64,000 bases of DNA from Carcharhinus longimanus. Its lineage: Eukaryota. This document shows, one piece after another, positions 11,471 through 47,875 of this stretch. The notes under the pieces were generated by a model. It was not told the DNA's origin. It worked only from the letters and a program-made list of their open reading frames with translations, and made no database searches. Numbering within the stretch: position 1 is the stretch's first letter; each line of letters opens with the position of its first letter. The DNA is taken from the NCBI GenBank assembly GCA_030264375.1, contig JASCQW010000160.1, positions 16,410,061 to 16,474,060 on the forward strand. Direction: 5' to 3'. Both the position numbers and the translations under genes were made by a program.

Positions 11471-11557
11471 TCAGTGAAACCGATCTCGCTTGTCTGTTTC
11501 AGAACTGTAATCACGCAAACCGATGCCCTTTTGTAGAGTTATTAACGAGTCTCTCAT
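11471..11557 (-). CDS. GRAMD1B: GRAMD1B last coding exon: MRDSLITLQKGIGLRDYSSETDKRDRFH*
   Basis: acag|ATG...CAC TGA; 87 nt; colinear with recalled human C-terminus MKDSLINLQNGI...RNRYH. Confidence 0.94.
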   Translation of the reverse strand: MRDSLITLQKGIGLRDYSSETDKRDRFH

Positions 11558-13149
11558 CTGTAGGATGAATTTTTAAAAAAATAGATGAAATTCCATAGTC
11601 TTTCTGAGCATCTCAATTTTCAGCATCATATTCACATAAGGGGGTCTGAATGCAGCCTGGCTGAGGGCCAGGTCTTCAGGATGAAGCAGATGCCCAGATT
11701 CCATTTCTGCCAACATGATGTACATTTTTAACAAAGGCAGTGTATATTAAAGGGAAGCATCAGTGCTGATGGCACCCTAACTGAATCAGGGATAAAACTG
11801 AAGCAACAGTTTTCATGAAGAACCATTTGCTAAACACTTTAGGGATGATTTGCAAGGCAAACATCTGAATATAATGTAACAAACATAAAGTTCATTCAGG
11901 TAGTATTCTTTAAAGATCAGTTCCACTACTTGGTAGTAGTTTCTTCACAGATTCTTCTACAGCCTCGACATTTGAATGGAAACTCGGGAAAAATTCTGAT
12001 TAGGGAGACGCAACAATGTTAAAATTTAATAACAGCTAAATATGCAATAACTTTCCTCATGCTAATAGCTTAGTACAAATCATTTTACAGGCTTTGCAAG
12101 GGTTAATCCTTCATCACATCAGACTGAGATGAAATTTTGAACTGACAATCTCTGGCAAGCAGGAAATGGGCAGATTCAGAATCACAAATCTCTCATCAGC
12201 TTCAGCAGTTATTTTTGTAAAGGCCAGATTGACACAGATGTAAAGAGTTTCAGGATTCATGGCTGCTTACCCTCCACACTGAGATGTGTGCAGCCACGTG
12301 TTTAAGATGCAGAACGTGATCACGTAAGTTTTCACTCCAGTAAAGTCTGCAGATATGAAAATCAGTTCCCTTAAATTTGGTGGATTTTGTATTTAGAACA
12401 AAGATGATGTTGGTGCTAGCAAGTGGAACACTTAATCATTTCAGTCACCTAAGTTGACTTTCCCAATTGGCCTGCTGTGCCAAGAGTGGAAAGCTAGTAG
12501 AAGCTATGCTCTACTGCATCACCATCTTCCTGCCATTTGCTGCTGACCTAGTCTGATAAAATGTAGGTTGTAGTGTTACAAGCAAGCACATGTAGGCCAT
12601 GCACAATCTGCTCAGACCTGCTAAAGTTCTATCCAATAATATATTTCAGTGCTAATGTCAGAGAAGCACCTCATTGCATCAAGTGTGTCATTTTTAATTT
12701 GCTAGCCTCCTGGGGCCCCTCTGAGAGCGGATGACAATTTAGTGGTAATTCATGCCAATTTGGGTGCAGTTTATGAGTCACTGAGTAGTGAATGAAGGCT
12801 CCCCAAGTTAATTTTATATACAATGTTTCAAACCAATAGCCAGTAGAGACTTTCACCTCAGTATGGACTTGCTCCCAGANNNNNNNNNNNNNNNNNNNNN
12901 NNNNNNNNNNNNNNNNNNNNNNNNNNNNNNNNNNNNNNNNNNNNNNNNNNNNNNNNNNNNNNNNNNNNNNNNNNNNNNNNNNNNNNNNNNNNNNNNNNNN
13001 NNNNNNNNNNNNNNNNNNNNNNNNNNNNNNNNNNNNNNNNNNNNNNNNNNNNNNNNNNNNNNNNNNNNNNNNNNNNNNNNNNNNNNNNNCCGATCTCGGA
13101 GCTTCAGTGGTCCCAATGCTTGCATTAGTAAATAAGAAATAACAGTCAC

Positions 13150-13270
13150 CTGATCTAGAAGTACTACTGATGATTTTAAAATCTCTCTCCATTTCTGTAG
13201 TTCAGTATCATGGTAACGCTGTTGTGACTCTAATAACTGGGCCCACTCCACCTGTGACTGGGGAAGTTTG
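13150..13270 (-). CDS. GRAMD1B: GRAMD1B exon, luminal amphipathic helix: KLPQSQVEWAQLLESQQRYHDTELQKWREILKSSVVLLDQ
   Basis: acag|C...CAG|gtgact; 121 nt, phase 2-0; in ORF 12853..13350. Confidence 0.96.
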
Positions 13271-14040
13271 CTGTATGGAAGAAAAGAAGCAAGTAAAAGG
13301 CTTTGGCTGTGCCAGTACTTCCAGCCTAACCAGCTTACATACAGGATCACAGAATTTCTAACGCAAATTACACTATGTGCAAGTCAGATTTCTGTGACTA
13401 TTTGTGCTGGTTTAAGAAACTAGCCATTCCGACAGAAACTGATAGCCGAAAATTTCCCCAGGGAAATCATAGCGAGTGAGGCAGAAAGTTTGGTGGACCA
13501 TTTAAAGGTTCATTGAACTCGGGTGGGAATTTCTGGTCTTGGGGTGCGTGCAGCTGGAAAATTCCATCCTATGTCTCTGATCAACTTAATCACTATAACA
13601 AGTTTTCATTAATTTCACTCATTTGTAACCCCTCAAGCTGACTTTTAAAATTAAACTTTTTTACGAGAACTTTAAAGATTTTTTAAAAAATTATAAAGTA
13701 TTTAATTTACCTCAAAACTAAGAACACATCATTCAGATGGTAAATCACACTGCATTGTTTCCACTAAGTCATTTTTAGTTATTTAAAATTAGGTTATAAG
13801 TGGTAAACCAGACAATTCCAATTAAAAATGTTCAGTTTTGTGATGAACACATATTCAGCTGTACTAGTTCTACAGTGACATTTTAGACTTTGACATCACA
13901 TTACGGTTGGTGAAAACGTAAATATGGTCCTTGCCAACACTACATCAAAAAAAAGCAGTAGAGTTCAGCAACTACTGAAGTCATTATTTTACACAGTCTC
14001 ATATAAGTGGGCTCTGTCAGGAGAAAAATGTAGACAATAC

Positions 14041-14148
14041 CTCTCCTGGAGCCTGATCCCATGCCACGTAGTGAGACTCTGTGTTGTATATTCCAACATC
14101 CATAGCTTATAAAATAACATCATATTCAGAAATACTAGTAACACCAAG
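14041..14148 (-). CDS. GRAMD1B: GRAMD1B exon, TM helix C-terminal half: LVLLVFLNMMLFYKLWMLEYTTQSLTTWHGIRLQE(S)
   Basis: acag|C...GAGAG|gtattg; 108 nt, phase 2-2. Confidence 0.95.
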
Positions 14149-14169
14149 CTGTGGAGAGAACAACAGTTA

Positions 14170-14680
14170 ACATAAGAACTAGGAGTAGGAGTTGGTCATA
14201 TCGCTCTTTGAGCCTGCTTCATCGTTCAATACAATTGCGGTTGATATTCTGCCTCAATTCTACATTTCACTACTATCCTCCCCATATTCCTTAATTAGTT
14301 TAGCATCCAAATATCTATTAATCTCTGTCTTGAATATACTCAAATTACTGAACATCCACAACTCTCTGGGATAGAGAATTCCAAAAATCCGTAAGCATTT
14401 GAGTGAAGAACTTTCTTCTCATCTCAGGCCTAAAAGGCTGACCTCTTATTCTGAGACTATGACACCCAATTCTGGCCTGCCTAGGTGGCTCAGTCTAGAG
14501 AAGATTTGTTCCACTCCTTGTAAGACAAGTACATTCTTTTTTTAAGTAAGGACACCAAAACTGTATACACTAGTCCAGTTCTGCTCTCACTAAGGTTCTA
14601 TTTGATCCCAATAAGACTTCTTCATTCTTACATTCCCTTTGTAATAATCACTAATGTAACATTTTCTTTCTTAATTGACC
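14170..14680 (-). mobile_element. CR1-type LINE 3' fragment
   Basis: acataagaactaggagtaggagttggtcat tail; gagtgaagaactttcttctcatctc. Confidence 0.75.
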
Positions 14681-15429
14681 TGCAATGTCATCCTAAAAAA
14701 TGAGATTAGGAAGGTGTGTATAGACTATGGAAAAAAGATAGATAAAGAACAATGAATGCTCAGCATTACCCCTGTGTATTTACTGGCTCTGGTCTAAGGG
14801 CAGGCAAAAACATTAAAGGTATCTTTGAAAATGATTCCTTTAAGCGGTTTAATTTTGTCCTTGTGCAATTTCATAGAAGTGTCCACTCTCACTTAGATTA
14901 TTTCAATGTTACAATGAATTAAACTTTAAACCCTGAATATTGCATAAAGAATTTTATTTGTCCTTCACCAATTCTCTCCTTTCTTCAAGGTGTTCCCCAG
15001 AGTGATAACTTCATGGATATCCATCATCCCTGGCACACTGTTCAAAAGCTCATTTACATAGGATTACATTACAGTGAACATACTGCACAGAACAGGCCAT
15101 TCAGTCCACTCAGTCTACGCTGTCATTCATAGTCCACTCTAGATTCTACCCACTTTTTTTCATCTAAATCTACAATTATAACACTTCATCCTCTTATATT
15201 TGTCTAGTTCTCTTTAAATGCATTTCTACTGCCACAGGTTTATACAATAAACACTGTAAAGAGCTAGAATCAGTCATCAGTACTACAAATCTATCATTCT
15301 TAGCTGTTTTAATTTTTTAAAAAGGCAAAATGTAAAAGTTAGCATTTTATTACAACAAAATCTGAATAATAACTGCTGCAGTTTGAGTTTCCCAGTGAGA
15401 TACAGGTTTTCAGAGCAAACTGTCTATTA

Positions 15430-15526
15430 CTTTAAAATCCCATTTAACCTTATTTAAACTGGATATCATCTTTTCTTTAAAATCCCATTTAACCTTATTT
15501 AAACTGGATATCATCTTTTCTTTAAA
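15430..15526. repeat. Perfect 45-bp tandem duplication
   Basis: ctttaaaatcccatttaaccttatttaaactggatatcatctttt x2 plus 7 nt. Confidence 0.95.
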
Positions 15527-15651
15527 CTGATGTTAATTCTAACGAGTTTTAATATGCGTTTAACAAACCACTTCGCCTTTTTTTCCTTCTGGAGTGCAAA
15601 TATTATATAGAAAAGGGAACTGAAGAGAATGCAAAAGAACTACAGTTGTAC

Positions 15652-15663
15652 CTTAAACAGATC
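15652..15663 (-). CDS. GRAMD1B: GRAMD1B 12-nt microexon adding ICLS to the TM helix
   Basis: ccttttctgtttactgctccctttag|GATCTGTTTAAG|gtacaa; phase 2-2, frame-preserving; corresponds to ICFS in recalled human sequence VISCV-ICFS-LVLLV. Confidence 0.85.
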
Positions 15664-16889
15664 CTAAAGGGAGCAGTAAACAGAAAAGGAAAATAGTGAT
15701 CAGAAAGGAAAACTTCAGATGTTGAGTACAATGAGGTTTGAAGTAATTACTGAAGCTTGCTGTCTCAAATGAAAAGGTTCATCATTTACAAAGAATGCAT
15801 CAATCAGCATAAATAGTGGACCAAATTCGAAAGCAAATCAAATCAAATGAATTGACTTTGTAAAGAAACTTGACTAGAAACAAATTTAAGTACAGTAGTT
15901 TCAGCTACAGATGCTGTGTCCTGGCTTATAAATGACCCAGAAATTGCCTTACAGCAGCTTTTAAACATCCTTAGACAGTACAATATACAAGAGAATCTTA
16001 ACCCATTTCAGGTTTGGAGTAGATTGAACCCTTTGAGAAAAATACCAACAATTCCTAATCAAGGACATTCTCTGAAAGAATGTTGCGCAAATGATTGAAG
16101 CTAAAGGTAATTTCACAATCTCATATACGCAGTGACACCTTCATCCATTGGGAACATGAATTGGTGGAGAGGCTATTGCTTTCTACACCATTCTTTGACC
16201 TATATTTCATGTGAGGTTAGCTACACAAGGAGCACTAAATTGTGGAATTGACCACTAAATTATCCTTGCACTTTTAAATACTACAATAGGCCATCTGGAG
16301 GAATGAGATTTACAGTTCTGTTTGTTCCTCTTCTTGGTCAGATAGATTGAATGGTATTTTAGAATCATAAATCTATAGTCATTAGAAGTGCCGGCCCTAA
16401 ATTGCTGCCGCAATTTTAATCTGCAGCACAGAGTAATTTATTGGAACTCATGGTGAGCTCAGGTTTTCACAAAGTAAATCATTTAGTGGTGGAAATCACC
16501 CAGCAACCTGTGGCAATTAAAACTCAGTGTGTCTATTCTTCACCGCAAATTGCTGAATCATTCACACATTAATAATGGAGCGTGTATTAATCTTTGCAGT
16601 ATTTATCACTTTCTCTCAACAGAACATTATGGAAATCTTAAATGATTTCTTTGACTCACTACAGTTACATACTATAAGCTCAAGTCTGTTGTTTATATAC
16701 TCATTCAATATTGAGCCACTGCTGTTAATCATGGGCCAGCCAATTCCAAATGAGGAATTTTCTAATCTTAAAGATTAGATAATGTATCCTTGCTATAAAT
16801 CACTAATGCAGAGTTTACATAACCTTTCAGTCAAAATAGAAACCACATAGAAATGCAACCCATACATGTAAAGGACTCTGGGTTGGTCT

Positions 16890-17236
16890 ATCATAGAATC
16901 ATAGAAACTGTACAGTACAAAAAGACACCATTCGACCCATCGAGTCTGCACGGACCACAATTACACCCAGGCCCTACACCCATATCCCTACATATTTACC
17001 ACTAATCCCTCTAACCTACGCATCTCAGGACACTAAGGGTAATTTTTAGCATGGTCAATTAATGGAACCCTCACATCTTTGGACTGCGGGAGGAAACCAG
17101 AGAACCCAGAGGAAACCCACACACAAACGAGGAGAATGTGCAGACTCCACACAGACAATGACCCAAGCTGGGAATCGAACCCAGGTCCCTGGAGCTATGA
17201 AGCAGCAGTGCTAACCACCGTGCTACCGTGCCACCC
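16890..17236 (-). mobile_element. HE1-like shark SINE
   Basis: tcatagaatcataga tail; ggaatcgaacc B-box; gcagcagtgctaaccaccgtgctaccgtgcc head. Confidence 0.85.
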
Positions 17237-17559
17237 ATTCTATAAATCTCTTATTATTCTACCATTCTATTAAGTAGGAAAAAAAAACCTGGAAGCTACC
17301 ATACCTCTTCTAAGTTGGCCTAGCATTTTTGAAGCCAAAATTTATTTTTGTCCAGATGCCTCCAAGAGGGAGTACTAGTTGTAACATCTTTCCAGCACAA
17401 AAAATATTTTAATTCTTTAACTTTTGCACTGAGCACACAATGGATTCATATGCTCCGGAAATCCAATGATTTTGTTTTTACCAGTTACTAAATATACACA
17501 GCAATTTGCTTTTATCTTGCTTCTCTAATCTAATATTTTCTTGCCTCTATTCCTGGTCT

Positions 17560-17951
17560 ATTCATGCATCTATCCAGATGCTTCTTGAATATTATTATAG
17601 AATCTGTTCCCACCACCTCCTTTGGCAGCGCATTTCAGGCATTCACCACCCTGTGTATGAAAAACTTATCCCTTATGTCTCTTTTAAGCTTTCCTCTCAC
17701 ACTTTCAACCTCTACCTTTGAGTAATTGACCCTTCAACCCTGGGAAAAAGACTGACTATCCACTCTATCCAAGCCTGTCATAATCTTGTAAACCTCGATC
17801 AAGTCCCCCCTCATCTTCCAACGTTCCAATGAAAACAATCCCAAGTTTGTTCAACCTTTCTTCATCATTCATACCTCCCAAATCAGGCAATATTCTGGTA
17901 AATCTCTTCTGCATCCTTTCCAATGCATCAACAACCTTCTGGTAGTGTGAC
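17560..17951 (-). mobile_element. CR1-type LINE fragment
   Basis: ORF 17765..17980: VDALERMQKRFTRILPDLGGMNDEERLNKLG, the CR1 RT C-terminal motif. Confidence 0.85.
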
Positions 17952-18423
17952 TTACTCCAGTTTTCATGCAAATTCGACACTTAGAAATTTTGGGGAGAAT
18001 TCTACCCATCACCTTTTGAGGTGGTGATTGAATTTGAGGATCACCACACCTCAGGCGATGGACAAGGTTGAGATGGCTGAGGTACTTCCTTTCCGAAGGT
18101 TACTATGGATTCTGCTTCTGACATTGTTTTCAGGACAGCATTCCATCCAACAACTCATAAAACAAGTCATGTCACTTTTCCATTCCTTAGTTTTTACATC
18201 TTTGATTACCTACTTAATGACTAATGGAAATAATTTAAGTTCATTTACTTGACTAAAACCCTTCAGAATTTTGAACAACGGCCATTTATGAACCAAAACC
18301 CCAAATTATTTTCAAAAAAAGTTTATTTTTAAATTTTATTTATTAATCACAAGTAAGGCTTACATTAACACTGATCCAATGCCCTCTTTGGCAAAAAAGC
18401 TGTGTGCATGCATTCAATAGGTG

Positions 18424-19240
18424 ATGGGTGGAATTCTCCCCAAAATTTCTAAGTGTCAAATTTTCATGAAAACTGGAGTAATTCACACTTTTTTTCAGTG
18501 GGGAGTTCAGAAAATAATCTTCTATACTCTGTGCACTGCAGAGGCCACCAGTGTGAATATCATTAAAAACTAGCAATTGGGATCTATTCCCGCTGGAAAG
18601 GCTGAAGTCAGTACACTAGACAGAATACTATGCATGTACCGATCTGTCAGCGCTGAGATCAGCGCATGTGCAATGTCAACCCCCCTCCCCCACCCCAGCC
18701 CACCCTGATCGCTAGCCTCCCTCCTTCCCCTATCAATCCCAACTGCAGAATGGCAGCGGGACCTCCCACTCCCACTGAACACCCCCTAGGTCCCGCCCTC
18801 ATTAAGCTGGGTCCGCCACAGGCCCTGCCCCCTTGGCACTGCCCCATGATGGGCAGTGCCAAGGTGCCCCCTGGGCATTGGCACTTTATCCCATGGGCCA
18901 GGGTGCCAATACCCAGGAGGGAAGGGGGGTGCAACTGCCCCCCCCTTCACTCTAGCAGGGTCAGGCTGCCAGCTCCCCAAAAGTGGGGAGCTAGACTAAA
19001 CCCCACTGGAATGAAATATTCCGGTGGGGTGGGAGACCCTAGTGGGCCTGGAGACTAATCATACTCAAATGCAATTGAAGTGACTATTTAAATGGTCTGT
19101 GCGTCTCCCCGCTAATTTCCAGCACAGAGCAGATGCTTCCGGAAATCCGGTGCTGGGTGACGCAAACAGGGTGTGAATGCTCATGCAAACCTTGCGAATT
19201 GGCCGCCGCAGGATTCTCCAGGCCCGCTGCGCTAAAAGTT
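18424..19240. mobile_element. GC-rich non-autonomous DNA transposon (MITE-like)
   Basis: Starts gggtggaattctcc, resembling termini of related elements at 33083, 27715, 42918, 45245; no coding capacity. Confidence 0.55.
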
Positions 19241-19493
19241 TTGCATTAGTCTTCAAAGGTACTGTGCATGTAACATTTAGTATGTATTTCTTTGGCAGCA
19301 TATGCGTAGAAACATAAGAGATTCTAATAAAAGTTTAATTTTAAATAAATTGTTTCCATTTAACTATAAATCCCTGGACACAGTCATAAAATTATTTTAG
19401 GAACTTACAAAGATTATCTTTGTACCTTCCCAGATCTCAAACACAATTGGAATGGAATTGTCAGAGACGCCACCTCATAACATTGATACTCAC

Positions 19494-19584
19494 ACAAAGC
19501 TTATGATGAGCAATAACTTGGAAACGCTGTAAAGCTGAATTCCTCCTTGAACTTCTTCTGGGATGTATTTTGTTTGTGTGGAAC
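19494..19584 (-). CDS. GRAMD1B: GRAMD1B exon, start of TM helix: GSTQTKYIPEEVQGGIQLYSVSKLLLIISF(V)
   Basis: acag|GT...TTTGT|gtgagt; 91 nt, phase 1-2; in ORF 19490..19732. Confidence 0.95.
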
Positions 19585-20624
19585 CTGTGGCAGTAGAGAA
19601 TGCAGATATTTTTAAGTGAATAACAATGCTGTTTCCATTAGTTGTGTCAGGCAGTGTTTCAACATTAAAAACAATACGTATCCTGATTAAATTTCCTGAA
19701 ATAATATAAATTGTAAGATAACCTGAGTGCAAAACACAAGGTTTGAATTAAGACAATGGGCTAAGTCACCTTGGAACAATAATGGTGGATTAATGGTGCA
19801 CATTTCTATTAATGAGTATTAGCCAACAAGTTCAGGGAATGAAGAGCTGCACCATGAATGCAAATCTCCAGGGCTTGCAGGTCAATTTATTTTGCTCCAT
19901 TATTTACTTCGGACAAACAGCAACTCACCCTTAGCCTCCCTATTAGTTTTAAGATCTTGCTGAATCTGCACATTAACTAGCTATGGGAAAGTCAGGCCTC
20001 ATAATTAAAAATTAAGCACCCTGTTAATGCCCTGATAATTATTAATGCAATCTAGTTCAGACTCCCTAGCCCAAAATGAGAACAATTTATCATCTGAGGG
20101 ACAATAAATGGTTGCTGCAAGATTTTGAACATTTCAATTTTAAACTTAAACTTATTTTTCTTACCTATTTTTCTCCCTGTCCCTCATTGCAAGCTTTCTT
20201 CCGANNNNNNNNNNNNNNNNNNNNNNNNNNNNNNNNNNNNNNNNNNNNNNNNNNNNNNNNNNNNNNNNNNNNNNNNNNNNNNNNNNNNNNNNNNNNNNNN
20301 NNNNTTACCTATTTTTCTCCCTGTCCCTTATTGCAAGCTTTCTTCCCATCTCTTTATTGTGTTTTTTGCACCTGATTTGACTCTAATTTACATACTATCA
20401 ATTCACCCTTCTTCGGCCTCCAGTGTTTCATTTCCAATCCTTACATAGCATTGAGTAAGGATATACGTGGTTGGTTCCATCATTTGCTGAGATTCCACGT
20501 GCTTCTTTTCTGTCACTAAGAGCAAGTTTCCGCTCAAAAAAAATTTGATAATCAAGTGCAGGAAAATATCTAATTCTATCAAGACATAATCCATTTAGTT
20601 TTTATAAATGAGACATCTACAGAT

Positions 20625-23600
20625 TTTTTTTTCTCTTTTCTATTCATTCATGTGTGGTGGTTGCCACTCTCTAGGACAGCATTTATTACCCATCACTAAT
20701 TGTCCTTGGTGGTGGTGAACTGTCTCTGGAACCACTGCAAAGAGCTGCGTTATAGAAACACCCACAGTGCTGTTAGGATGGGATTCCAGGAGTTTGACCC
20801 AGCAACAGCAAAGGAATGGTGATATTGCTTCAGGTCAGGACTTGAAGTCATATGTGTGACTTGGGAGGGGAACTTGCAAATGGTGGTGTTCCCATCCATC
20901 TGCTGCCCTTCTCCTTCTAGCAGGTAAAAGTTATGGATTTTGAAGGTGCTGTTGAATGAGCCTTGGTGAGTTGCNNNNNNNNNNNNNNNNNNNNNNNNNN
21001 NNNNNNNNNNNNNNNNNNNNNNNNNNNNNNNNNNNNNNNNNNNNNNNNNNNNNNNNNNNNNNNNNNNNNNNNNNNNNNNNNNNNNNNNNNNNNNNNNNNN
21101 NNNNNNNNNNNNNNNNNNNNNNNNNNNNNNNNNNNNNNNNNNNNNNNNNNNNNNNNNNNNNNNNNNNNNNNNNNNNNNNNNNNNNNNNNNNNNNNNNNNN
21201 NNNNNNNNNNNNNNNNNNNNNNNNNNNNNNNNNNNNNNNNNNNNNNNNNNNNNNNNNNNNNNNNNNNNNNNNNNNNNNNNNNNNNNNNNNNNNNNNNNNN
21301 NNNNNNNNNNNNNNNNNNNNNNNNNNNNNNNNNNNNNNNNNNNNNNNNNNNNNNNNNNNNNNNNNNNNNNNNNNNNNNNNNNNNNNNNNNNNNNNNNNNN
21401 NNNNNNNNNNNNNNNNNNNNNNNNNNNNNNNNNNNNNNNNNNNNNNNNNNNNNNNNNNNNNNNNNNNNNNNNNNNNNNNNNNNNNNNNNNNNNNNNNNNN
21501 NNNNNNNNNNNNNNNNNNNNNNNNNNNNNNNNNNNNNNNNNNNNNNNNNNNNNNNNNNNNNNNNNNNNNNNNNNNNNNNNNNNNNNNNNNNNNNNNNNNN
21601 NNNNNNNNNNNNNNNNNNNNNNNNNNNNNNNNNNNNNNNNNNNNNNNNNNNNNNNNNNNNNNNNNNNNNNNNNNNNNNNNNNNNNNNNNNNNNNNNNNNN
21701 NNNNNNNNNNNNNNNNNNNNNNNNNNNNNNNNNNNNNNNNNNNNNNNNNNNNCTGCCTTGATGGCAGGGCCAGTCACTCTTATCTCACTATTTAAGATAG
21801 GCTGTTTGGATGAAGGCTGTAATGAGGTCAGGAACCAGGTGGTCTGACTGAACTCAAACTGAACAGGTTATTGCTGAATAAGTGCTGCATTACGGCACTG
21901 TCGACCACACTTGCCATCACTTTGCAGATGATCGAGAGTAGACAAGTGGGGCTGCATTTGTGTTTGTCCTGCATTTTGTGGGTAGGACATACCTGGACAA
22001 TTTTTTATATTGCTGGGCAGATGCCAGTGGAACAACTTCGATAGGGATGTGTCTAGTTCTGGAGCACAAGTCATCAGTATCATCGCCAGAATGTTGTCAG
22101 GATCCATAGTCTTTACTGTATTGTGTATTCAGCCATTTCTTGATGTCATGTGGAACGAATCTGATATCTGTGATACCGAGGACTTCAAGTGGAGCTAGAA
22201 CATCTATTTGGCATTTCTGGCTCAAGCTGGCTGTAAGTGCTTCGGCCTTGTCTTTTGCACTGTGATGCTGGGCTCCCCCAACATTGAGAATGGGCTATCC
22301 TCCTCTAGTTAGTTCTTTAACTGTCCACATCATTCATAACTAGACGTGGCAGGATTGCAGAGCCTAGGTCTGATCTGTTGGTTCCAGGATAGCCTTGCTT
22401 TGCTTCTGCTCTTTGAAATGCATGTAGTCCTGTTCTGTAGCTTCACCAGATTGACACTTCATTTCATGATAAACCTGGTACTGCTCCATTCCTGCTCCCC
22501 TCCACTCTTCACCAAACTGGTGCTGACCCCTCAGCTTGAAGGTAATGGTAGAGTGGGGGCTTTGCCAGACTATAAAGTTACAGACTGTGGTTATATGCAC
22601 TTCTGCTGCTGCTAGTGCTTCATGGAAGACAAGTTTTGAGTTGCTAGTTCCATACAGCAGAATCAAAGATATCTTTGGTGTGATAATGGGGCTTCACCTT
22701 CACAAGGACTGTCTGGTGGGTCACTCCTAACAATACTGTCACAGACAGATGTATCTGCGATAGAATGATTGGTGAGGATTAGGTCATCTTGTTGGTTCCC
22801 TCATCACCTGCTAAAGAGCCCTTCCAACAGCCATATTCTTTAAAATTCAGCTAGTTCAGTCAGTAGGGGTGCTACCCAGCCACTCTTGGTGATGAACATT
22901 GAGGTTCATTTTGTACCTTTTTCACCCTCAATGCTTCCTCCAAGTAGTGTTCAACATGGAACAGTACCGAATCATTAGCTGAGGGTGGCAGTAGATGGTA
23001 ACCAGCAGGAGATTTCCTTGCTTACGTTTGACCTAATGGCACAAGACTGCATAGCATCTGAAGTTGATGTTAAGGACTCCCATGGCAGTTCCATCTGAGG
23101 TGTCACCTCCTCAGAGATGGTGGTGGTAATATTATAGAGGCTCCAATGTTCTGACCAGGAAACTCTGCCACTCTTACTGCCTGCCATTGGCATTTGTTGG
23201 AAGTATCTGAGAGTTGATACTTAACCGGCTTGGGTAGACTTTACCAATGGATCTTCCTGGTCCTTGGTATCTGAAACATTGTCTGGAACGTATGATTCCA
23301 TGAGTATGCCTACGTCAGAATGCTGTTTGACTAGTCTATGGGACAGCTCTTCCAATTTACTACAAGCCCCAGATATTACTAAGGAGAACTTTGCAGGTTT
23401 ATACCATTGTTGTTTCCAATGCCCAGACTGATTCAGGTCACCTGTCTGGCTTTCTTTCTTTTTTCAGAGTTTGTCGCAGTTTGATGCAACTGAATGTCTT
23501 GCTGGACAATTTCAAAAGGGATTTAAGAGTAAACCATGTTGCTGTGCGTCTAGAGTAACATGTAGGCCAGACTAGGTAAAGACAGTAGACTTCCTTCCCT

Positions 23601-23778
23601 AAAGGAAATTAGTGAACCATTGGTGAGAGTGTTTACGACAATTGGCTACAATTAAGCAGTTTTTAATTCCAGATTTACTAATTGAATTTAAACTCTGCTG
23701 GCTGCTGTAGTGGGATTTGAACCCATGTCTCCAAAACCTGGTCCTCTGGATTACTAATCCAGGGACATTACCATTATA
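20625..23778 (-). mobile_element. Decayed LINE (APE + RT) with tRNA-like 5' head, partly in an N gap
   Basis: RT motif MDPDNILAMILMTCAPELDTSLSKLF; APE N-terminus LSNIWGL..KLEELSHRLVKQHSDVGILMESY near 23390; tail at 20641; B-box GGTTCAAATCC at 23713-23723. Confidence 0.85.
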
Positions 23779-23784
23779 GTAACA

Positions 23785-24050
23785 GAGGAAACAGACACAG
23801 AATTCAACCCTCCGCCACTCAATCAGATCATGGCTGATCTCTTCCTGGTCTCAAATCCATCTCCCCACCTGTTCCCCACATCCCTTATCCTTTTCTTAAT
23901 GTTAGAAATATGTCAATCTCCCTCTTGAAACCATTCAACGATTCAGACTCCACTGCATATGGGGCAGTGAGTTCCACAAATTCACCACCCTCTGCGAGAA
24001 GTAATTCCTTTTCATCTCAGTTTTAAATCTACCGCCTGGCAACCTATACC
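23785..24050 (-). mobile_element. CR1-type LINE 3' fragment
   Basis: aatcagatcatggctgatct; gttccacaaattcaccaccctctgcgagaagtaattcc. Confidence 0.75.
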
Positions 24051-24330
24051 TGTGGTCAGTGCTTTAACCACTGCTTTCCCAACAGCGACAAAGAAATTAT
24101 TTTAATACAGGGAACACATAATGAGAATAAGTTATTGATAAAAATAAATGATTAACTGGTCAAACGTTGCACAACTCACTATGAATTATTTTTGGCACAT
24201 CACAAGTTTGTGCCCACAGTTCAGGTCCACCCCAAAATACAAATAAAGCATATTTTTCTTTTCAAATATAAAAATCCGTAATAAAGAAAGCAAAGGGCAC
24301 TGAAGGGATGTTCTCCATTCTTAATTTTAC

Positions 24331-24534
24331 CTGCCACATGTTTAATCCTCTGGGCTACCTCTTCATCAGTCGGTGTAGTTACAGGACTGATTGTTTCATC
24401 GAGATGTTGGCTTCGCACATGCATGTGAGGTCGCTTTCTCCTTCGAATTGTGGACGATTTGTTGGGTTTTTCTTTTGGAGATTGCCTGTGCAGTTCAGCA
24501 GCATATTGTTTCTCTACTTTTGCAAGCTCAATAT
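24331..24534 (-). CDS. GRAMD1B: GRAMD1B exon, basic linker: DIELAKVEKQYAAELHRQSPKEKPNKSSTIRRRKRPHMHVRSQHLDETISPVTTPTDEEVAQRIKHVA
   Basis: atag|AT...GCAG|gtaaaa; 204 nt, phase 1-1; in ORF 24221..24547. Confidence 0.95.
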
Positions 24535-24721
24535 CTATGGATACCAAAGTAGGGGTGTTTTAAGTTGCAGTCAACCAAACAAAACCGTGTCTTACCTGAT
24601 TAAGTATTACATTATTCAGAATTGAACCAATATATTCGCTACCTCCTGATTAACGCATTGCCTGCAAGTGTGCCCATTTTGTGCAAAAATCCAAGTATTT
24701 AGTTAGTCTACATCAGATCAA

Positions 24722-25040
24722 AGGATGGTCCGTGTTACAGTGGAAAGTGTTCCTGCCTCTAAGCCGTAGTTCCAGGTTCGAGGTCTACCCCAGGATTTGA
24801 TGGCTAAGGAAGGTACTATGGTAAATGCAACTCACACAGGTTGAGTATCAACTTTCAAATCCTTCCAACAAATGCCATTGCCAGGCAGTAAGAGTGGTAG
24901 AATTTTCTGGTCAGAATAGTGGAGCCTTTACTACTACTTTCCGTAGCTCCAAACCATAATACGAACGAAAAAGTTCATACTGCCACAGCAACTTGGACTT
25001 CCTGGTCAAGTTCTTACTAACGGCATCTCAGTGCACCTTG
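24722..25040 (+). mobile_element. tRNA-derived SINE (second family); inverted partial copy at 23139-23270
   Basis: A-box-like gtgttacagtgg, B-box-like ggttcgaggtc; body matches the reverse complement of 23139-23225. Confidence 0.65.
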
Positions 25041-25494
25041 TCTTGGCTTATTATGGTAAACTGGGGAAACAATTTGCATTTAACATAGTACTGCTCAAGA
25101 TAAATTATTACAACCATTAGTGCTTTTGTGATCTCCAATTGTCAAAGAAAAATAGCAACAGGCTAAAATTATTCCTCTCTGCTCAGACTAACGTTCCTTA
25201 CCCAGAAACAAGTCTCGCTCCCAATTCTTTGCTGATCTTAATCTCATAACGATAGCCTTAGCTTTTTGTACTGAAGGACGAAATGTACTAAAGTTCACAC
25301 TCCTCTGAATATGCAGTAACCAGGGATCAAGTTTGGTTGTGACAGCACACGGAGAAAATGGCTCATCAACTCTCATCATTGGGCACGTACAGGAAAAACA
25401 GCCATTTAGATGGCTAGAATTCTCTGATGTTGGACTCCCCACCACCACTGACAGCGAGAACGGAGAACCTGGCACTCAGCCAAATCTCCAATCA

Positions 25495-25713
<219 letters not shown>

Positions 25714-26659
25714 TTAAGTTAATTGATTAAAGAACACATTTATAATTCAGTTATCTTTCAAAACTTTACGTTATTTATACATGCAATCTCGAACAGCATG
25801 TCAAATACATGAAGGAAATTATTTACCTGCTAATTTCCAGGTCAGTGTGCATGAATGGGATCTTACACTTTGTGGGGTAAATGACTATTTCTAGTAAAGC
25901 CTTTCTCCTGGGCAACAAGATGCACAATTTGTGAGGCATGAAAGAGGTATTAGGATCCGTTCATATGGTTCTGACATGCCAACATTTATCCTGAATGTAC
26001 TTTGCACTGATCATTAAACAGCAAAGAACAACAATCACCTTGCAGCTAGAAATACAAGTACATCATTGTCATAATGTTGATTGCTTCTCCATCAGGTTGG
26101 TTCAAAAACAGCATTTAAATCAGGGTGGCTAAGGTGTTATACATTGCTTGTTATTTAATACGTGCTTTAATGCATGCGGGCAATAACACAGAATCAGTGA
26201 TCCCCTCATGACGAGTATAGCGTTTTGGTAATGAGTCTTAAGTCTTCTAATTTTAGTCACTAGCACTGTGAACAAATAAAATTCACAGCTTGCATATTGA
26301 ACTGAATAGACAGGACATTGTTTCTTTGCAAATACCCTTGCTTGTAAAACTTATTGAGTGTGGATGGGATTCAGTCTAGAATAATATGACACAATAGGTT
26401 GTTTTGTTCTGTGAGTTAAAATGAAAAACATTCACCAGATGATAAATGGACCTGAAACTTATTGGAAAGACACTGTTAATACTCCAAAAAAGGCTGTCAT
26501 TTGGAACTCCATAAATCTTTAAATGAATAGTTGGCAATTTTACTTTGTTTTGAATAGGTACATTTTGATCTCATTTTTTTCCCTTTTCAGACTTCAAAGG
26601 TGTTGGTGCAAAACTCACAGTGTGTCTGTCCAGAATTTTCGAAAGCCATCAAAAGGAAG

Positions 26660-26975
26660 AAGGAACGTAGAATCACTACAGTGTAGAAGGAAGCCATTAG
26701 GCCCATCGAGTATGCATCGACTCTTACCCAGGATAACCCCTTAACCCCACATATTTCTCCCACTAATCCCCCTAACACATAGATCTTGGGACACAAAGTG
26801 CAATTTAGCACAGCCAATCAACTTAACTTGCACAACTTTGGAGTGTGGGAGGAAATTGGAGCACCTGGAGGAAATCCAAGAAGATACAGGGAGAACACAG
26901 TCAGGCTGTGAATCGAACCTGGGTCCTTGGCGCTGTGAGGTAGCAGTGCGAATCACTGTGCTAGTAAGCTGCCCA
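26660..26975 (-). mobile_element. HE1-like SINE
   Basis: gaatcgaacctgggtccttggcgctgtgaggtagcagtgc head; ggcccatcgagt tail. Confidence 0.85.
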
Positions 26976-27080
26976 CAGGACCAGTAGTCAAATATCCAGC
27001 CCTTCAGTTTGTTCTGCCATTCAATTAGATCATTATCAAATTAAGAAGCACTTTAAGGAAGCACAAATTAAAAAGGGTGA

Positions 27081-27340
27081 CAGTCTGTGGGGAGCATACA
27101 TGTCCTTCCCATGTCTGCGAGGGTTTCCTCAGGGTGCTCTGGTTTCCTCCCATTGTACAAAGAGGTACAAGTTAAATGGACAAACTAAATTGCCCCTTAA
27201 TGTCGAAAAATGTCTAGGTTAGTGGATTAAACATGGTAAATGTGTAAGGTTACAGGGATAGAGCCAGGGTGTGGGCCTAGGTAAGATACACTTTTGGAGG
27301 GCTATATGGCCTCTTTCTGCATGTGGGGATTCTATGGTTC
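27081..27340 (+). mobile_element. HE1-like SINE (5' truncated)
   Basis: gggtttcctcagggtgctctggtttcctccc...gggattctatgg. Confidence 0.8.
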
Positions 27341-28501
27341 CAAACACAAAGACTGACTGATGTTTGAAACTCTTCTACAAATAGCAACAGTTGCAAAATA
27401 AATTTTAGGGTATTAACAGATTGGGGAGTTTGTGGATTTAGTTTGCAGATCAGCCATAAATCTCATTGAAAGGCAGAGCAGTTTCAAATAACCTGGTTCC
27501 TGGTTCCTACTTCCAAAATGTTGAACAGTATTTCCCATGTCCATCTGCCTTAATTCCCTTGCCAAACAAATATTTATCAGTATCATTTTTGAATTTTCAA
27601 GTCACAACAGCGTCTCTGGGAAAAAAGTCTCATTTTCTATTCATCTTTGTGTGAAGTAGTAGCAAAGTAGTTGTCCAAGTATTAGAAGGCTCCATGGGGG
27701 GGAAAATGACTAAAGGCCAAAATTTTCAGTCCTCATTCGCAGTTGGGATTTTCCGGTGCCGCTAAAAACAAATGGAGCTTTGGCTGGAACACCAAATTTT
27801 CTGTTCTTGTTTGCACTGGGTTCCGCCATGGACAAGACAGAAAAACCCCACTCAAAGAATACCATCTGAGGTTGCTTAGGGATGTTGAATTATTAAGAGA
27901 TATTAAGAATACAAGAATACGATATTAAGAAGACTTCTTAATATTTACTATTTTCTGTATTCAAGGGGGAATACATTCTAGGAAGTTGTGCAATCTTCTG
28001 GATTGACTTTACTATTAATTATTAGTCATTATTGGCAGATATTTTCAGTAAATGATGGTATAAGAATGTTTCTTTTATTGCTTTCCCAAATCTAGGACAC
28101 TAGGAGAGGGCTGTTGATATCTCCAGTAAGATAAAGGGAGAAGAGTTTCTGGTTGAACCCTGAGCTTGCAATGTTATCAAATAATGGGTATTTGAAGGTG
28201 CAAGTCGGTTCTTAAAGAGAAATGGTGCATCCAAGGTTGGTCTTTGACACTAAATGTGAAACCATATCAACCCATCAAAGCAGCTGCACGAAGATGTAAC
28301 ATTGCAGTGGCGAAAATCTATTCCAGCTCCATTCAGGTTCCACTGTCTAAAATTATCTCCTTGGTGTTAAGTAATGCTCTCTTCAGAGAATTGCAAAATG
28401 ATGAAGAATTTAAGAATCGCAAACTTTTTGTGGTACTTGCTGCACTTAAATTCAATATGTTGCTACACAAAACTACTAAATCAGGAGTAACAGCTTCCTT
28501 A

Positions 28502-28648
<147 letters not shown>

Positions 28649-28984
28649 TTAATGAAGAAAAATTTCAAAGTGCACAAATTGCAATCAGTACATTGGAAAA
28701 ACACTCTAGGGAATACATATCACAAGTGGTAATTGCTTACTTCAAGATCAGTCCTCTGCAGTTTACATTAAACAATATTTTACCAAACTAAACAGTTATT
28801 TAGTTTTTGATGGTTGAAACTACAAAGCTCAGGAGTCAGTGTCTTGCAGTGCTATAAAATGCTAATTTTGATAACCTGCAAACAGCAAGTATTTTAGTTG
28901 GATAAAATAGCCTAATGTATTCCATCACTAATTATAGCTTCATAGAATCGGTGCTGTCAGTTGTTAGAAGCATAAATACCTCGG

Positions 28985-29258
28985 AAGCACAGTGGTTAGA
29001 ACTGCTGCCTCACAGCGCCAGGGACCTAGGTACGATTCCCTGCTGAGGTCACTGTCTGTGTGAAGCTTGCATATTTTCCCCATGTCTCCATGGGTTTCCC
29101 CTAAGTGCTCTGGTTAGGTGGATTGGCCATGCTAAATTGCCCATTAGTGTCAGGGGGTCTAGCTCGGGTAAATGCATGGGAATGGGGCTTGGCTGGGATT
29201 GTGGCAGATTTGATGGGCTGGATGGCCTCCTGCACTGTTGGATTCTATGATTCTATGA
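28985..29258 (+). mobile_element. HE1-like SINE
   Basis: gcacagtggttagaactgctgcctcacagcgccaggg...gattctatgattctatga. Confidence 0.85.
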
Positions 29259-29383
29259 AATTGTACTGAGATCACAGGATTTACTTACTCCAACAACACT
29301 GACTTAGGAATCAAAGATGAACTCTATCAAGTGCTAAAGATATAAGCCAGATCACATTTAATGTTAACTTTGAAGAGTCTTAC

Positions 29384-29502
29384 CTGGGTCTCGGTGACTG
29401 TGGCAGTTTTTGGCGCAAGTGGGTTTGAGAGAGCAATAGTGTACAACATCACTCGGGTCTGATTGCCATCAACTTCTTTCTTCCAAGGATGACTAACCAT
29501 AT
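29384..29502 (-). CDS. GRAMD1B: GRAMD1B exon, VASt domain: DMVSHPWKKEVDGNQTRVMLYTIALSNPLAPKTATVTETQ
   Basis: ctag|AT...CAG|gtaaga; 119 nt, phase 1-0; in ORF 29327..29536. Confidence 0.96.
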
Positions 29503-29877
29503 CTAGAGTGAAAAATAATTCAGTATTGTTAGCCATTCTTCATCATTCTAGGACCTTCATCTGGAATGCAGGATTTGCAGAAGTAGCTTTCATTATGGCT
29601 AATATGAGTATTCAGTTTCATCATACACATAGGTCAGAATCTGACCTCGCTGCAGTGAGTTTCTCTGCAGTGAATGTGCGAACCTATCAAACGTCCATTG
29701 ACTTTGGCAGGAAAGGCCAGAAAATAGAATGTGTGTGTGTGTTTTTAAACTTCTCATTTTACTTTCACTTAATCACTTATTCCAATTCTGAATCGTGCAG
29801 AGTCATGGTGTTCGGCAGGGTTCACGCAGGACAGGATCGCAGTTCAGCGTAGGACTCGCACTCGCACACAGACAAAC

Positions 29878-30075
29878 TTAAGACAATTTAGCATGGCCTA
29901 TTTACCTAACCTGCCATCTTTAGACGGGGGAGGAAACTGGAGCACCCAGTGAAAACCCATGCAGACACAGATAGAATCTGCAGACTCCACACAGACAGAC
30001 ATAAGGCCGGAATTGAACTTGGGTCCCTGGAGCTGTGAGGCAGCAGCATCAACTATTGTGCCACCGTGCTGCCCA
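29878..30075 (-). mobile_element. HE1-like SINE (5' half)
   Basis: caatttagcatggcc...ggaattgaacttgggtccctggagctgtgaggcagc...gtgccaccgtgctgccc. Confidence 0.8.
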
Positions 30076-31817
30076 GTGTTTTTTAAACATCTCTGTCAAT
30101 TAGGTGATCAATGGAGGTTAAAAAATATACATTTTATGGTTGTGTTTGATTAAACAAATCATTTTCTTTCCTATTGAAACATTTGTGAATGCATGATCAA
30201 TTGTGTTAAGCATCATACATTGGCAATTTCTGTCCTCAAAGTCTCACTGCTTTTCACATTTTTGTACCAATCCCGCATATTAGAAACTTCTTACATATAT
30301 TTATTACACCGTGATGGCATTTCATTGCTTCAGTTTTGCATTTCCAGCTCTTCAGTGTGTAATAAGCACTTAAGTCCCAACCAGACCTACTCTTGTGCTT
30401 CCCAAAATGCCATAAGTTTTGCAGAAAAAACAATTTCAAAAATAAATTGATTGGATGGCCACAAAAAGGAAATACACTTGCCAGATAGAGCAGAGAATAG
30501 GACTAAGTGGAATGGTCTACAGAGAGCCTACATGGACTTGATGGCCTCTTTCTGTTTGTCGTGAGACTATGCACCTTCACTTTTTCGAAAAAACGGTTTT
30601 TCAACTTTCAAGTGACTGAAGTTTGGAAATTTTGCACTTTGAATAGAGACAGAGCAAACTGTTTAAAAACGCAAGGTCACGTTCCAAGGTGAAAGTGAGG
30701 AACAAATAAATTACCCTCAGGGGAAATTGAAGAGAGCAACATTTCTTATAGTCTAGAAACAATAACTGTCACAGAAGTACACGTGCAAAACCTCTTCGAA
30801 ATTCAAAATGGATGAAGTATTTCAAGGCAAAGCTGACCAATCACTTGAGAGAGATTGCAAGTGACAACAGGTGTTGTCAAGAAAGTCATCAGCAGAGAAA
30901 AGGGACTGAAGGCTGCTTTCGCTTCTATTTACACTTTTGGAATAACAGTGTCACCCAATTTGAAAAGCCAACTCTATCAGGAACCTACCAGCAAGTGAAG
31001 GATCTCGTAATAATTACAACATCTTCTGAAGCTGATTGCATCAAAGAAACAAGCTAACCTAAATGAGCCATAGCATTTAACATCTATGCCTCAATGACAA
31101 TCAAAGGACATTTAATTGTATATTATTTTACCTTTTGTTTGGACTCTAACTTCCAAATGTTTGACCTCACATTATTACTTGGGATTAGAAGTTAATAAAT
31201 TTGTTTTTTTCACTCAAAACACTCCGTTTGATTCCTTAAAAACTTAAAACATTCTGATTTGGAAAAGGCATATTCTTGTAAAAGAGAAACTTAAACCTTT
31301 GTACCAAAGGGAGTGAGTTCACCTCTTTTCTCCTGATTATAACATAGGCCATAATGACTTTATGATCTAATTATGAATGATCTGAACTTAAAATACCATA
31401 TGTAAATAAGAGTGGAATGGATGATTATAAAATAGAAATTGAATTAAGCTTGCAAGTGGTGGTCCATTGTTACCTGCCCTCTACATGTGCTTCACCTGAA
31501 AAGTACCCTTGGTTTGAATCCCATTGCACAATGTTAAGGAAACTGCCTAGTTTATGTCAAGAAAAAAAAAAATCACAATTCAAATTATCAAAATAAATAC
31601 TTACATCGCTGGGAAAAGAACTATTATCACATCTAAGGTGATACAATACATTTTGTTCATCTGGTTGTAAACAACAGAAGGGTTAATATACATATTTTAT
31701 GATGTTCATGCCCTTTAAGAACTCTGTATATGGGTATGTTCCAGTAATGATTGATCATATATTTTTGTTGACATTAACTAATTCTTCAAAAAAAAACAAC
31801 GCAGGTGATCCCCAACC

Positions 31818-32011
31818 GACTCAAGAACAGCTTCTTCTCTGCTGCCATCAGACTTCTGAATGGATCTGCCTCGTATTAAGTTGATCTTTCTCTGCAGTCT
31901 AGCTATGACTGTAACACTACATGCTGCACTCTCTCCTTTCCTTCTCCATGTACAATACTTTTCACTGTATACTAATACATGTGACAATAATAAATCAAAT
32001 CAAATCAAATC
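31818..32011 (+). mobile_element. Rex1/Babar-like LINE 3' end with (CAAAT)n tail
   Basis: Encodes RLKNSFFSAAIRLLN, followed by aataaatcaaatcaaatcaaatc. Confidence 0.7.
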
Positions 32012-32559
32012 CAACAAGTGTACAGCTCCTCTGTATCAGTGAGGATCGCAAAGCAGCCTGTCATCACCGATCTAGAGAAGCTAGAGGAAAAAGGACCTAA
32101 AATGCTGGGCCCCTTCTCAAGCACATTTAATATTTTGTCTGAAAACACCAAAGAATTTTTTCCATGCACAATTTTTTTCCCTTCTGTCACACTTCTAATG
32201 TAGCATTTTCAAATGTCAAAAATATAAGAGAGAAAAATAAAGGCAGTCTGTTTCATCTTAGTTTCTTCTGATCTGCAGTTTACTATTTAGAAGTACTCAC
32301 CAATCTGTAAGTCTCCTTTACCCATAGTACTTAACCACAAATTGATCTCAAGATACTGTTCGTAAAATAGTAAGACACTGTGACCATGAAGGGTTAAAGG
32401 CAACTGTAGCTTAACAGGACAGCAGGTTGTCCATTAATTAGCATGAATCTGCTAACGCACAAAGGTCTTCCATACCTGTCAAGTGACCATGAGCAATACC
32501 GTGGGAGATTTTAGTATTAATTATTAGATCAAAAAAAGGTAAACTCTCACTCCCCATCC

Positions 32560-34272
32560 TTCTCATCCTGTCCAGTCTTTGAGACTGTTGATCACACTAT
32601 CTTCCTCCAATGCCTCTCCACGGTTGTCTAGCTGGGTGGGACTGCTCTCATGTGGTTCAATTATTATCTAGTCATAGCCAAAGAATCACTGCAATTCTTT
32701 ACTTCTTGTGTCTACACCGTTATCTGTGCTGTCCTCCATGGATCTATCTTGATCTCTTTTCTATATCTCATTTACATAATCTGCTTCAGTGGCATTATCC
32801 ACAAACTGACAACACCCATCTCTACCTCACCATCACCTTTCTTGAGAACCTCACTGTTGATATATCATCAGACAGTTTATTTGACATTCAATACTGAATG
32901 AGCAGAAATTTCCTCCAACTAAACTGGAAAGACTGAAGCCGTTGTTTTCATTGTTTACCTACCACATATACTGCTCTCCAATTACTGACACTACCCCTTT
33001 GCTTGGCAGCAGTATGAGATCAAACCAGTTTGTTCAAAATCTTGGTGTCACATCTGATCCCGAGTTAGGTTTCTGACATCATGGCCAGGATTCTCCAAAA
33101 AACAAACTAAGCATCCAACGTGCAGGAAAATGGGAATATTTCCTGCCTGTTTTTTGGGCGCTCCCACCAGAGCGAATCTCCGACACTCTGAGCATTGCAG
33201 AGTGCCTCAGCGTGAATCACTCTCGGGTAAGTAGGTGGCGAGGCCTATTCCTGTCCAAGAGGCCAGCATGTGGGTATGCCGGCGTTGGACTGGCGTAAAC
33301 ACAGTAAAAAGTCTGACAACACCAGGTTTTAGTCCAACCTNNNNNNNNNNNNNNNNNNNNNNNNNNNNNNNNNNNNNNCGCAAGCCCCTGTTCACTGGCC
33401 TCCCGAACCTCCCCTAGCCAGCTCCTTTGTGCTCTCTCTATCCGAGCGCTGATCTCCCCTGCCTTACCCACTCCCCCACCTGATCCCGAGCACCAATTCC
33501 CCTCCCCCACCCTTCGCTCGGATAGTCCAGCGTGGAGCTGATTACGCTAAAAAAAACCTGGGAGATTGTGCCCAGCATTACAGGCCCCCTGCTGGTGTTT
33601 CCTGGCCCATATTTGTGCCATTACTAAGACCACCTATTTTGACATCTGTGATGTTGCCTGAATTCACTTATCTCAGCTCATCTGCCGCGATAACCCTCAT
33701 TCATGCCTTTCTTATATCCAGATTCAATTATCCAAATACATTCTTGGTTGGCCATTCAAAATTTTTGTAAACTTGAGGTCATCCAAAATCCTGCTGCCTT
33801 TGTCTTCAATTACAGCAAGTCCTATTCCCCCTTCAATCCTGAGCTCAATGATTTACATTGGATCTCAGTCAGCTATGTCTTGAGTTTAAAATTTTCAATC
33901 TTCTTCTTAAATCCCTCCATGGCCATGTCCCTTTCTATTGCTGCATTCTTGTTCAGCCCCACAACCCTCTGAGATATCTGTACTCCTCTAAATCATGCCT
34001 ATTGCACATTCCCATGATAACTGATCCACCACTGGTGGCCACACCTTCAGTTGCCTTGTCTCCAAGCACTGGAATTTCCCTACATCTCTTTACCTTGCTT
34101 TTCCTTCTTTCAGGCAATCCTTAAAACATTTCTATTCAACCAAGCTTTTGGTCATTTGGCCTAATATTGTCTTATGTGGCTAGGTGTCACCTTAGTTTTG
34201 TTATGCTTCTCTGAAGTGCTTGGGGTATTTCATTACACGAATAGCATTATATAAATGTAAGTTATTGTTATT
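32560..34272 (+). mobile_element. L2-type LINE 3' fragment, interrupted by a MITE
   Basis: FETVDHTI RT motif (ttgagactgttgatcacactatc), LHW motif, tail attatataaatgtaagttattgttattg. Confidence 0.8.
33083..33607. mobile_element. PIF/Harbinger-like MITE with TIR GGCCAGGA and 3-bp TSD CAT
   Basis: cat|ggccagga ... tcctggcc|cat; the L2 sequence resumes seamlessly on both sides. Confidence 0.7.
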
Positions 34273-34510
34273 GGCTTTGGGATGGTAATTCACTTTGGGA
34301 CAGAAGCTTGAACGTTTTCCCCTTTAATTATCTTCAGAATTTAAATAACTTCAGTGTATACCCTTTACCTTCGTTTGGAAAGTTGCATTATGGTTAGAGT
34401 AAAATAAAACTTTTTTTCAGCTTTTCTGAGACAGAAGAACACCATAGTCCTGGGAACACTGAGTTCTCCATAGGCTTTATCTACACAAGATATTATGAAA
34501 ACTAGTTTAC

Positions 34511-34654
34511 CAGTGAACCTCCGCTGCTCAAAGAAATCTCGTAGAAACTGGGAGTCAGTGAAGAGTAGATCGTACAGCTTGTCCACATTGACATGGAAAA
34601 CCTCATTAATGTACTGTCGGCCATTGAGATCTTCATAGAACGCTTGCACTTCTC
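34511..34654 (-). CDS. GRAMD1B: GRAMD1B exon, start of VASt/ASTER domain: GEVQAFYEDLNGRQYINEVFHVNVDKLYDLLFTDSQFLRDFFEQRRFT
   Basis: gcag|GA...ACTG|gtaaac; 144 nt, phase 1-1; in ORF 34365..34709. Confidence 0.96.
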
Positions 34655-37041: not shown

Positions 37042-37216
37042 CCTCGTCATGTGTTTCAGAGGAGTCACTAAGCTCTGTTGGAATATCCTCATTATCATTG
37101 AAGTCCAGGGAAGGAGAGTTCACTGGCAAAATGATTTCATTCTTGTCAATGGCCTGAAGGGCTTCAATTTCATCTTCTAGGTGATGGTCATCCTCTTCTG
37201 GCAGAATACCATCGAA
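37042..37216 (-). CDS. GRAMD1B: GRAMD1B exon, acidic linker: FDGILPEEDDHHLEDEIEALQAIDKNEIILPVNSPSLDFNDNEDIPTELSDSSETHDE
   Basis: atag|TTC...GAGG|gtatgt; 175 nt, phase 0-1; conserved PVNSPSLDFNDNEDIPTELSDSS motif. Confidence 0.94.
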
Positions 37217-39117: not shown

Positions 39118-39274
39118 TGAGGCAGGAGCCTCACTGCTCCCTGTGGAGGTTATTGTGCTGTTCGTGACTGATTTCTTTTGCATCTGTGGACTGGCATCCG
39201 TTTTTACTTCTATGCTGCTTTTAGATGTGTTATCATTCACCTCTACTTCTTCCACTGGGATTTCTTCACAGAAC
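39118..39274 (-). CDS. GRAMD1B: GRAMD1B exon, Ser/Thr-rich linker: FCEEIPVEEVEVNDNTSKSSIEVKTDASPQMQKKSVTNSTITSTGSSEAPAS
   Basis: gtag|G...TCA|gtatgt; 157 nt, phase 2-0; open frame colinear with recalled human YCEEIPVEE...SSEAPVS. Confidence 0.94.
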
Positions 39275-47874: not shown

Positions 47875-47875
47875 A

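Follow-up and report, generated by a model that had tools for sequence, protein, structure and literature searches.

The GRAMD1B locus and its 12-nt exon

The 64,000-nt stretch of DNA analysed here (the window) carries part of GRAMD1B, the gene for Aster-B, and the 5′ exons of the gene lie beyond the right end of the window (Table 1). Aster-B of Mustelus and of catshark matches the window exon by exon, in order between 50628 and 11474 and mostly with 86–100% identity, and the domain order (GRAM, VASt, C-terminal transmembrane (TM) helix, luminal helix) is that of Aster-B. The Aster-B-like protein of Mustelus, P0005, bears PF02893 and PF16016, the latter of which (VASt) matches within the window, and for the luminal-helix exon the identity to four Aster-B records of sharks in RefSeq is 100%. 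Thus, judged from sequence, the ordered exon matches, the PF16016 match and the identical luminal-helix exon identify the gene as GRAMD1B, in a shark-like genome.

Table 1. Features of GRAMD1B in the window
Feature	Position	Strand	Basis or remark
GRAMD1B/Aster-B, part within the window (GRAM, VASt, TM, luminal exons)	11474..50628	-	tblastn of P0005 and P0133
Upstream exon, 91 nt	19494..19584	-	juxtamembrane region and first part of TM helix
3′ splice site: polypyrimidine tract, 47-nt AG-free zone	15664..15712	-	acceptor ...ccctttag
UGC, candidate SRRM3/4 element	15673..15675	-	-12 to -10; inferred role
12-nt cassette microexon	15652..15663	-	included form reads I-C-L-S within TM helix
5′ splice site, AAG/gtacaa	15646..15651	-	+4 to +6 depart from GTRAGT consensus
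Downstream exon, 108 nt	14041..14148	-	second part of TM helix plus luminal linker
Next exon, luminal helix region	13150..13270	-	40 aa identical (100%) to Aster-B of catshark and of Mustelus

Other small exons and inserts were seen in this gene. A 39-nt exon (36355-36393, minus strand) adds 13 residues directly before the VASt domain; of 104 full-length chondrichthyan records of Aster-B, 96 keep it and eight skip it, and it is missing from all 169 other records; by this distribution it is a cassette specific to cartilaginous fish. Directly before the GRAM domain, past the right end of the window, lies a 21-nt exon (L044:7680-7700, minus strand). An alternative 7-residue insert of some isoforms did not turn up in a search of 40 kb. 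A 21-nt GRAMD1B microexon is listed as retina-specific in human and chicken (PMC9303857). Some mammalian Aster-B models (P0075, P0078, P0084, P0085 and others) carry an extra insert of 24 residues, which in P0078 and P0085 lies between the TM and luminal helices.

Two genome searches, in which only the best candidates were scored, yielded no GRAMD1A-like gene, a result of little weight; they returned GRAMD1B, one diverged VASt gene on contig C98, and matches to GRAM alone on C148, C43 and C150. The C98 gene (about 1.78-1.82 Mb), which we take to be GRAMD1C-like, has a GRAM exon whose alignment is split over two frames and contains a stop, and its TM exons were not located in these searches; it is possibly a pseudogene or an assembly error.

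The microexon lies on the minus strand at 15663-15652, where acceptor side, 12-nt exon and donor read tttactgctccctttag GATCTGTTTAAG gtacaa. An earlier note, made from the letters alone, had proposed this exon together with the UGC at -12 to -10, the donor gtacaa and the junction coordinates, all of which we recover on the sequence. The flanking exons join in frame both with the exon (ISFV-ICLS-LVLL) and without it (ISFV-LVLL); with its 12 nt and both joins open, it fits the class of frame-preserving microexons of 3–27 nt. The proposal that skipping is tolerated thus holds, and both forms are annotated in relatives. Upstream lies CTGAT, a branch-point-like sequence whose A is at -37 (15700), and the UGC is present between this A and the 3′ AG. 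The donor AAG/gtacaa matches the consensus on the exonic side and at +1 to +3 and is unmatched at +4 to +6.

A scan of the intron for AG-(3n nt, 3–27)-GT candidates returned 195, of which 143 keep the frame open. Only two intron candidates have an AG preceded by 20 nt that are at least 80% pyrimidine, and the 12-nt exon is the only one that has a UGC as well. Taken alone, the UGC is weak evidence for a microexon; it occurs at -20 to -5 of 23 of the 101 pyrimidine-rich YAG sites on the minus strand of the window. What raises the exon above chance is the insert in protein records, the 11/12 identity to a mouse exon and the junction signature of an RNA contig, all described below. Some 60 nt downstream, the intron has another pyrimidine-rich AG that follows a UGC; the possible 24-nt frame-preserving exon that it would define (15565-15588, minus strand) has a poor donor, and no insert matching it was seen at the TM junction among the proteins scored. 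The intron downstream of the microexon also contains a tandem duplication of ∼53 nt (window about 15422-15528), one copy of which is absent in the related organisms of sequencing runs X3 and X6.

Transcript and protein records of the exon

Reads were placed on 13900-17000, a span that leaves the upstream junction 19494>15663 outside. Run X1 is presumed to be an RNA run; that its contig ends at exon boundaries led us to judge it spliced. This contig of 5919 nt matches 14041-14150 with no mismatch; it ends exactly at the donor of the downstream exon, where the next exon starts with a different base, and overruns the acceptor by 2 nt. Inclusion of the microexon predicts an overrun of 2 nt, skipping predicts 0, and skipping of the upstream exon as well would, by inspection, give 3. 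The observed overrun therefore indicates that the microexon is used in spliced RNA, in agreement with the junction 15652>14148 proposed earlier, and the included form is the sole form seen, in one contig; the 12 nt themselves, too short for placement, drew no X1 coverage, an absence without weight. Intronic contigs of X1 differ from the window by 1–4 letters per 150–240 nt, and by sequence X1 is the window's species or a close relative. For X6, from a related organism, differences are fewer near the exon, four in 605 nt compared with 27 in 1101 nt (P about 0.001, Poisson), and for X3, from a related organism as well, none of the differences listed falls within 15647-15828.

Conservation analysis of 306 related protein records, which are isoform models and non-independent, with a second search biased to inclusion by its query, showed the insert in 99 (72 ICLS, 15 ICFS, 7 ICIS and 5 ICVS); 164 lack it and 43 are outside the pattern. 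From sharks to mammals, all 99 inserts have the same length and the pattern I-C-x-S, with an invariant Cys and L, F, I or V as the third residue. The earlier note's expectation of conservation across jawed vertebrates is borne out by these inserts and by the mouse exon, and ICFS, which it gave for human, is the mammalian version in the protein records. In an alignment of 172 Aster-B isoforms, the ICxS junction is the sole frequent 4-residue cassette (138 rows lack it), and two rarer 4-column gaps fall at a 7-residue cassette and within a variable exon.

Among 107 chondrichthyan records, labelled by name, 16 include the exon, 86 skip it and five could not be scored; inclusion was seen in at least four of about 23 species, by a hand count among the matches listed. 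ICLS is found in RefSeq models of S. canicula, A. radiata, C. plagiosum and P. pectinata. Both forms are annotated in the last three of these, with the insert in most A. radiata models, and all S. canicula models found carry it (five distinct records: P0003, P0004, P0127, P0133 and P0136). Both forms also occur in Latimeria (P0209/P0227), Polypterus (P0220/P0247), Cavia, Phoca, Halichoerus and Zalophus, so that cassette behaviour is seen in annotated forms of related fishes and of four mammals. The closest model, P0005 from Mustelus, is without the microexon. Skipped chondrichthyan models may stem from libraries of non-neural tissue in which the exon is truly left out, or from alignment programs that overlook a 12-nt exon. 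The suggestion that annotation pipelines are likely to miss this exon does not extend to VastDB-based tables or to RefSeq of the four cartilaginous fishes, all of which have the exon, although 86 of 107 chondrichthyan records are without it.

Probable neural inclusion and predicted lengthening of the ER anchor

With a probability of roughly 0.8, we read the locus as a cassette exon that is included mainly in neurons under SRRM3/4 and is predicted to lengthen the ER anchor of Aster-B from 21 to 25 residues. That the shark GRAMD1B exon is real is virtually certain; its neural SRRM3/4 regulation in the shark is argued by analogy and is probable; a measurable effect of the insert on oligomers or recruitment is a more tentative proposition, which we hold at less than even odds.

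The regulatory part is drawn from likely orthologs. In zebrafish, the 12-nt exon DreEX0035920 of gramd1ba has a neural dPSI of 90.98 and a dPSI of -43.72 upon srrm3/4 loss of function, and its PSI rises from 11 at 20 hpf to 84 at 4 dpf (Lopez-Blanch 2025, PMC12626424). The human ortholog, HsaEX0028506, has a neural dPSI of 53.94 and the value NA for SRRM4 overexpression (PMC12626424). In the 5-dpf eye, gramd1ba PSI is 72.5 in the wild type vs 28.8 in the srrm3 mutant (Ciampi 2022, PMC9303857); the inclusion left in the mutant indicates that Srrm3 dependence is partial. The two VastDB identifiers were matched to the shark exon by gene, length and the 172-isoform alignment and are its likely orthologs. 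Since the likely zebrafish ortholog is neural and Srrm3-dependent and the human one is neural-enriched, neural inclusion is likely in the shark as well. By inference from these orthologs and from the family, SRRM3/4 would act in neurons through the UGC at -12, promoting use of the 3′ splice site and early spliceosome assembly on the microexon.

Alternatively, the shark exon could be included broadly, or in nerve and muscle, under other regulators, the skipped models being in part aligner misses. The inclusion seen in the X1 contig, in every S. canicula model found and in most A. radiata models would fit such a pattern. The mouse transcript ENSMUST00000045682, whose gene name is absent from the MicroExonator table, is presumably Gramd1b. 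Its microexon, chr9_-_40300439_40300451, is flagged 'Annotated', has a mean vertebrate conservation of 3.83 and falls in the neuro-muscular cluster NM4, and in the mouse embryo its differential flags for brain, heart, muscle and adrenal are all FALSE (Parada 2021, PMC7821500). The embryo result counts against strict neural specificity in mammals. Broad inclusion is nevertheless improbable, given that both forms are annotated in three chondrichthyan species, that inclusion of the likely zebrafish ortholog is strongly neural and depends on Srrm3 (PMC12626424, PMC9303857) and that the layout of the 3′ splice site fits the SRRM3/4 type.

At the protein level, the hydrophobic span from lysine to lysine measures 21 residues in the skipped form and 25 in the included form, at nearly equal mean hydropathy (2.74 vs 2.79). 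ER transmembrane helices are typically shorter than those of the plasma membrane. In the AlphaFold model of P0003, an included form, ICLS occupies residues 732-735 of one continuous helix (716-767, local pLDDT 79); the model is poor overall (mean pLDDT 39) and informative for helix continuity only. The four added residues would make the helix ∼6 Å longer and rotate its luminal half by ∼40 degrees relative to the cytosolic half, which may retune TM-TM packing or hydrophobic match and, through altered packing, change Aster clustering at ER-plasma-membrane contacts in neurons.

In line with the earlier note, which held that GRAMD1 TM and luminal helices mediate oligomerisation, GRAMD1 complexes are driven primarily by the luminal helices and secondarily by the TM, through which a residual interaction persists, and they are needed for efficient accumulation at ER-PM contacts (Naito 2019, PMC6905856). 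As the TM contributes to these complexes, a change in its packing or hydrophobic match would be the most likely effect of the insert. That work, done with HeLa and COS-7 cells, places L434 and W678 by the numbering of NP_065767.1 (PMC6905856), and this spacing of 244 matches nine insert-bearing records and none of 52 skipped ones (modal spacing 240). By this residue count, the human GRAMD1b construct was likely the included isoform. We found no paper comparing the two Aster-B isoforms among the titles and abstract starts searched.

Two other accounts concern what the insert does. The exon may be real and regulated while its four residues have no measurable effect, the longer helix simply tilting in the ER membrane; this is a distinct possibility, though we would not bet on it. 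The unchanged mean hydropathy fits this account, as do the primary part that the luminal helix plays in oligomers, which leaves the TM a residual one (PMC6905856), and the little phenotype of most individual zebrafish microexon deletions, which show none in most tests (PMC12626424). Conservation weighs on the other side: length and I-C-x-S are kept in all 99 inserts, and in GRAMD1A, the paralog, an exon of 12 nt lies at this junction too, which together point to long-standing selection. The exon could also matter through its invariant Cys, by S-acylation or by an intramembrane disulfide of paired helices, rather than through helix length. We regard this as quite unlikely: the Cys is kept in 99 of 99 inserts while the third residue varies, but S-acylation is usually juxtamembrane and the Cys, at position 10 of 25 in the span, lies near mid-membrane and away from the juxtamembrane zone. 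Splicing constraints at the nucleotide level in a 12-nt exon could also fix the codon.

Returning to the preferred reading, a neuronal cassette that lengthens the anchor, it may be taken jointly with the paralog. Aster-A and Aster-B would then share an ancient SRRM3/4 switch of ER-anchor length, in which neurons have an Aster-B anchor of 25 residues and most cells one of 21, and the change would alter TM packing or membrane-thickness preference and thereby clustering and cholesterol movement; studies in non-neural cells with standard human GRAMD1b may have used the neuronal isoform. This wider proposal is speculative, and as a whole we consider it rather doubtful. Its interest lies in a microexon that, in two paralogs, falls midway along the one TM helix of a single-pass protein, a helix that helps Aster oligomerisation; if the isoforms differ, neurons would tune plasma-membrane cholesterol sensing and transport in their own way.

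Relation to catalogued microexons

Published catalogues of zebrafish, mouse and human already list what is likely the same exon, and models of four cartilaginous fishes annotate it. The shark exon confirms its jawed-vertebrate range and fills a likely annotation gap; the exon itself adds little, and novelty lies only in the proposed TM-length function. A full-text search, covering mostly open-access papers, found no main text joining GRAMD1B and microexon, and for GRAMD1A and microexon it found only the Insplico paper and its preprint. Among the matches in the SRRM4 supplement tables of PMC7935315 (12 of 19 files), no GRAMD1B inclusion row appeared, and 'gramd1' is absent from the supplements covered of PMC12626420 (12 of 13 files), PMC12868881 (one file) and PMC4387716 (five of six files).

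For the paralog, zebrafish gramd1a DreEX0035911 has a neural dPSI of 90.63 and a srrm3/4 loss-of-function dPSI of -27.96, and the corresponding human values are 73.9 and, for SRRM4 overexpression, 99.27 (PMC12626424). The human 12-nt exon HsaEX0028492 of GRAMD1A goes from a PSI of 0.1 to 99.14 with SRRM4 (Head 2021, PMC7935315). It was used for RT-PCR validation in the Insplico paper, whose junction primers map it to the TM junction of the Aster-B microexon (PMC10250204).

SRRM3/4 microexons are characterised by a distal branch point and pyrimidine tract; 74–79% of them have a UGC and, as a tendency, their 5′ splice sites are stronger (Bonnal 2025, bioRxiv 10.1101/2024.09.17.613571). The shark exon is alike on the 3′ side, but its donor is weak at +4 to +6. 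The earlier note listed the weak donor gtacaa, but a weak donor is no hallmark of SRRM3/4 exons; on the points examined, the account given in that note is otherwise supported. Zebrafish DreEX0035920 and human HsaEX0028506 resemble the shark exon in gene and in their length of 12 nt and are likely orthologs. The mouse exon is identical to it at 11 of 12 nt and has the same phase, but encodes ICFS, with Phe where the shark has Leu. The human GRAMD1A exon likewise has 12 nt and, as derived from the primers, the same TM junction and phase; in contrast to the others it belongs to a paralog, with a switch-like response (PSI 0.1 to 99) and a human neural dPSI of 74 vs 54 for GRAMD1B.
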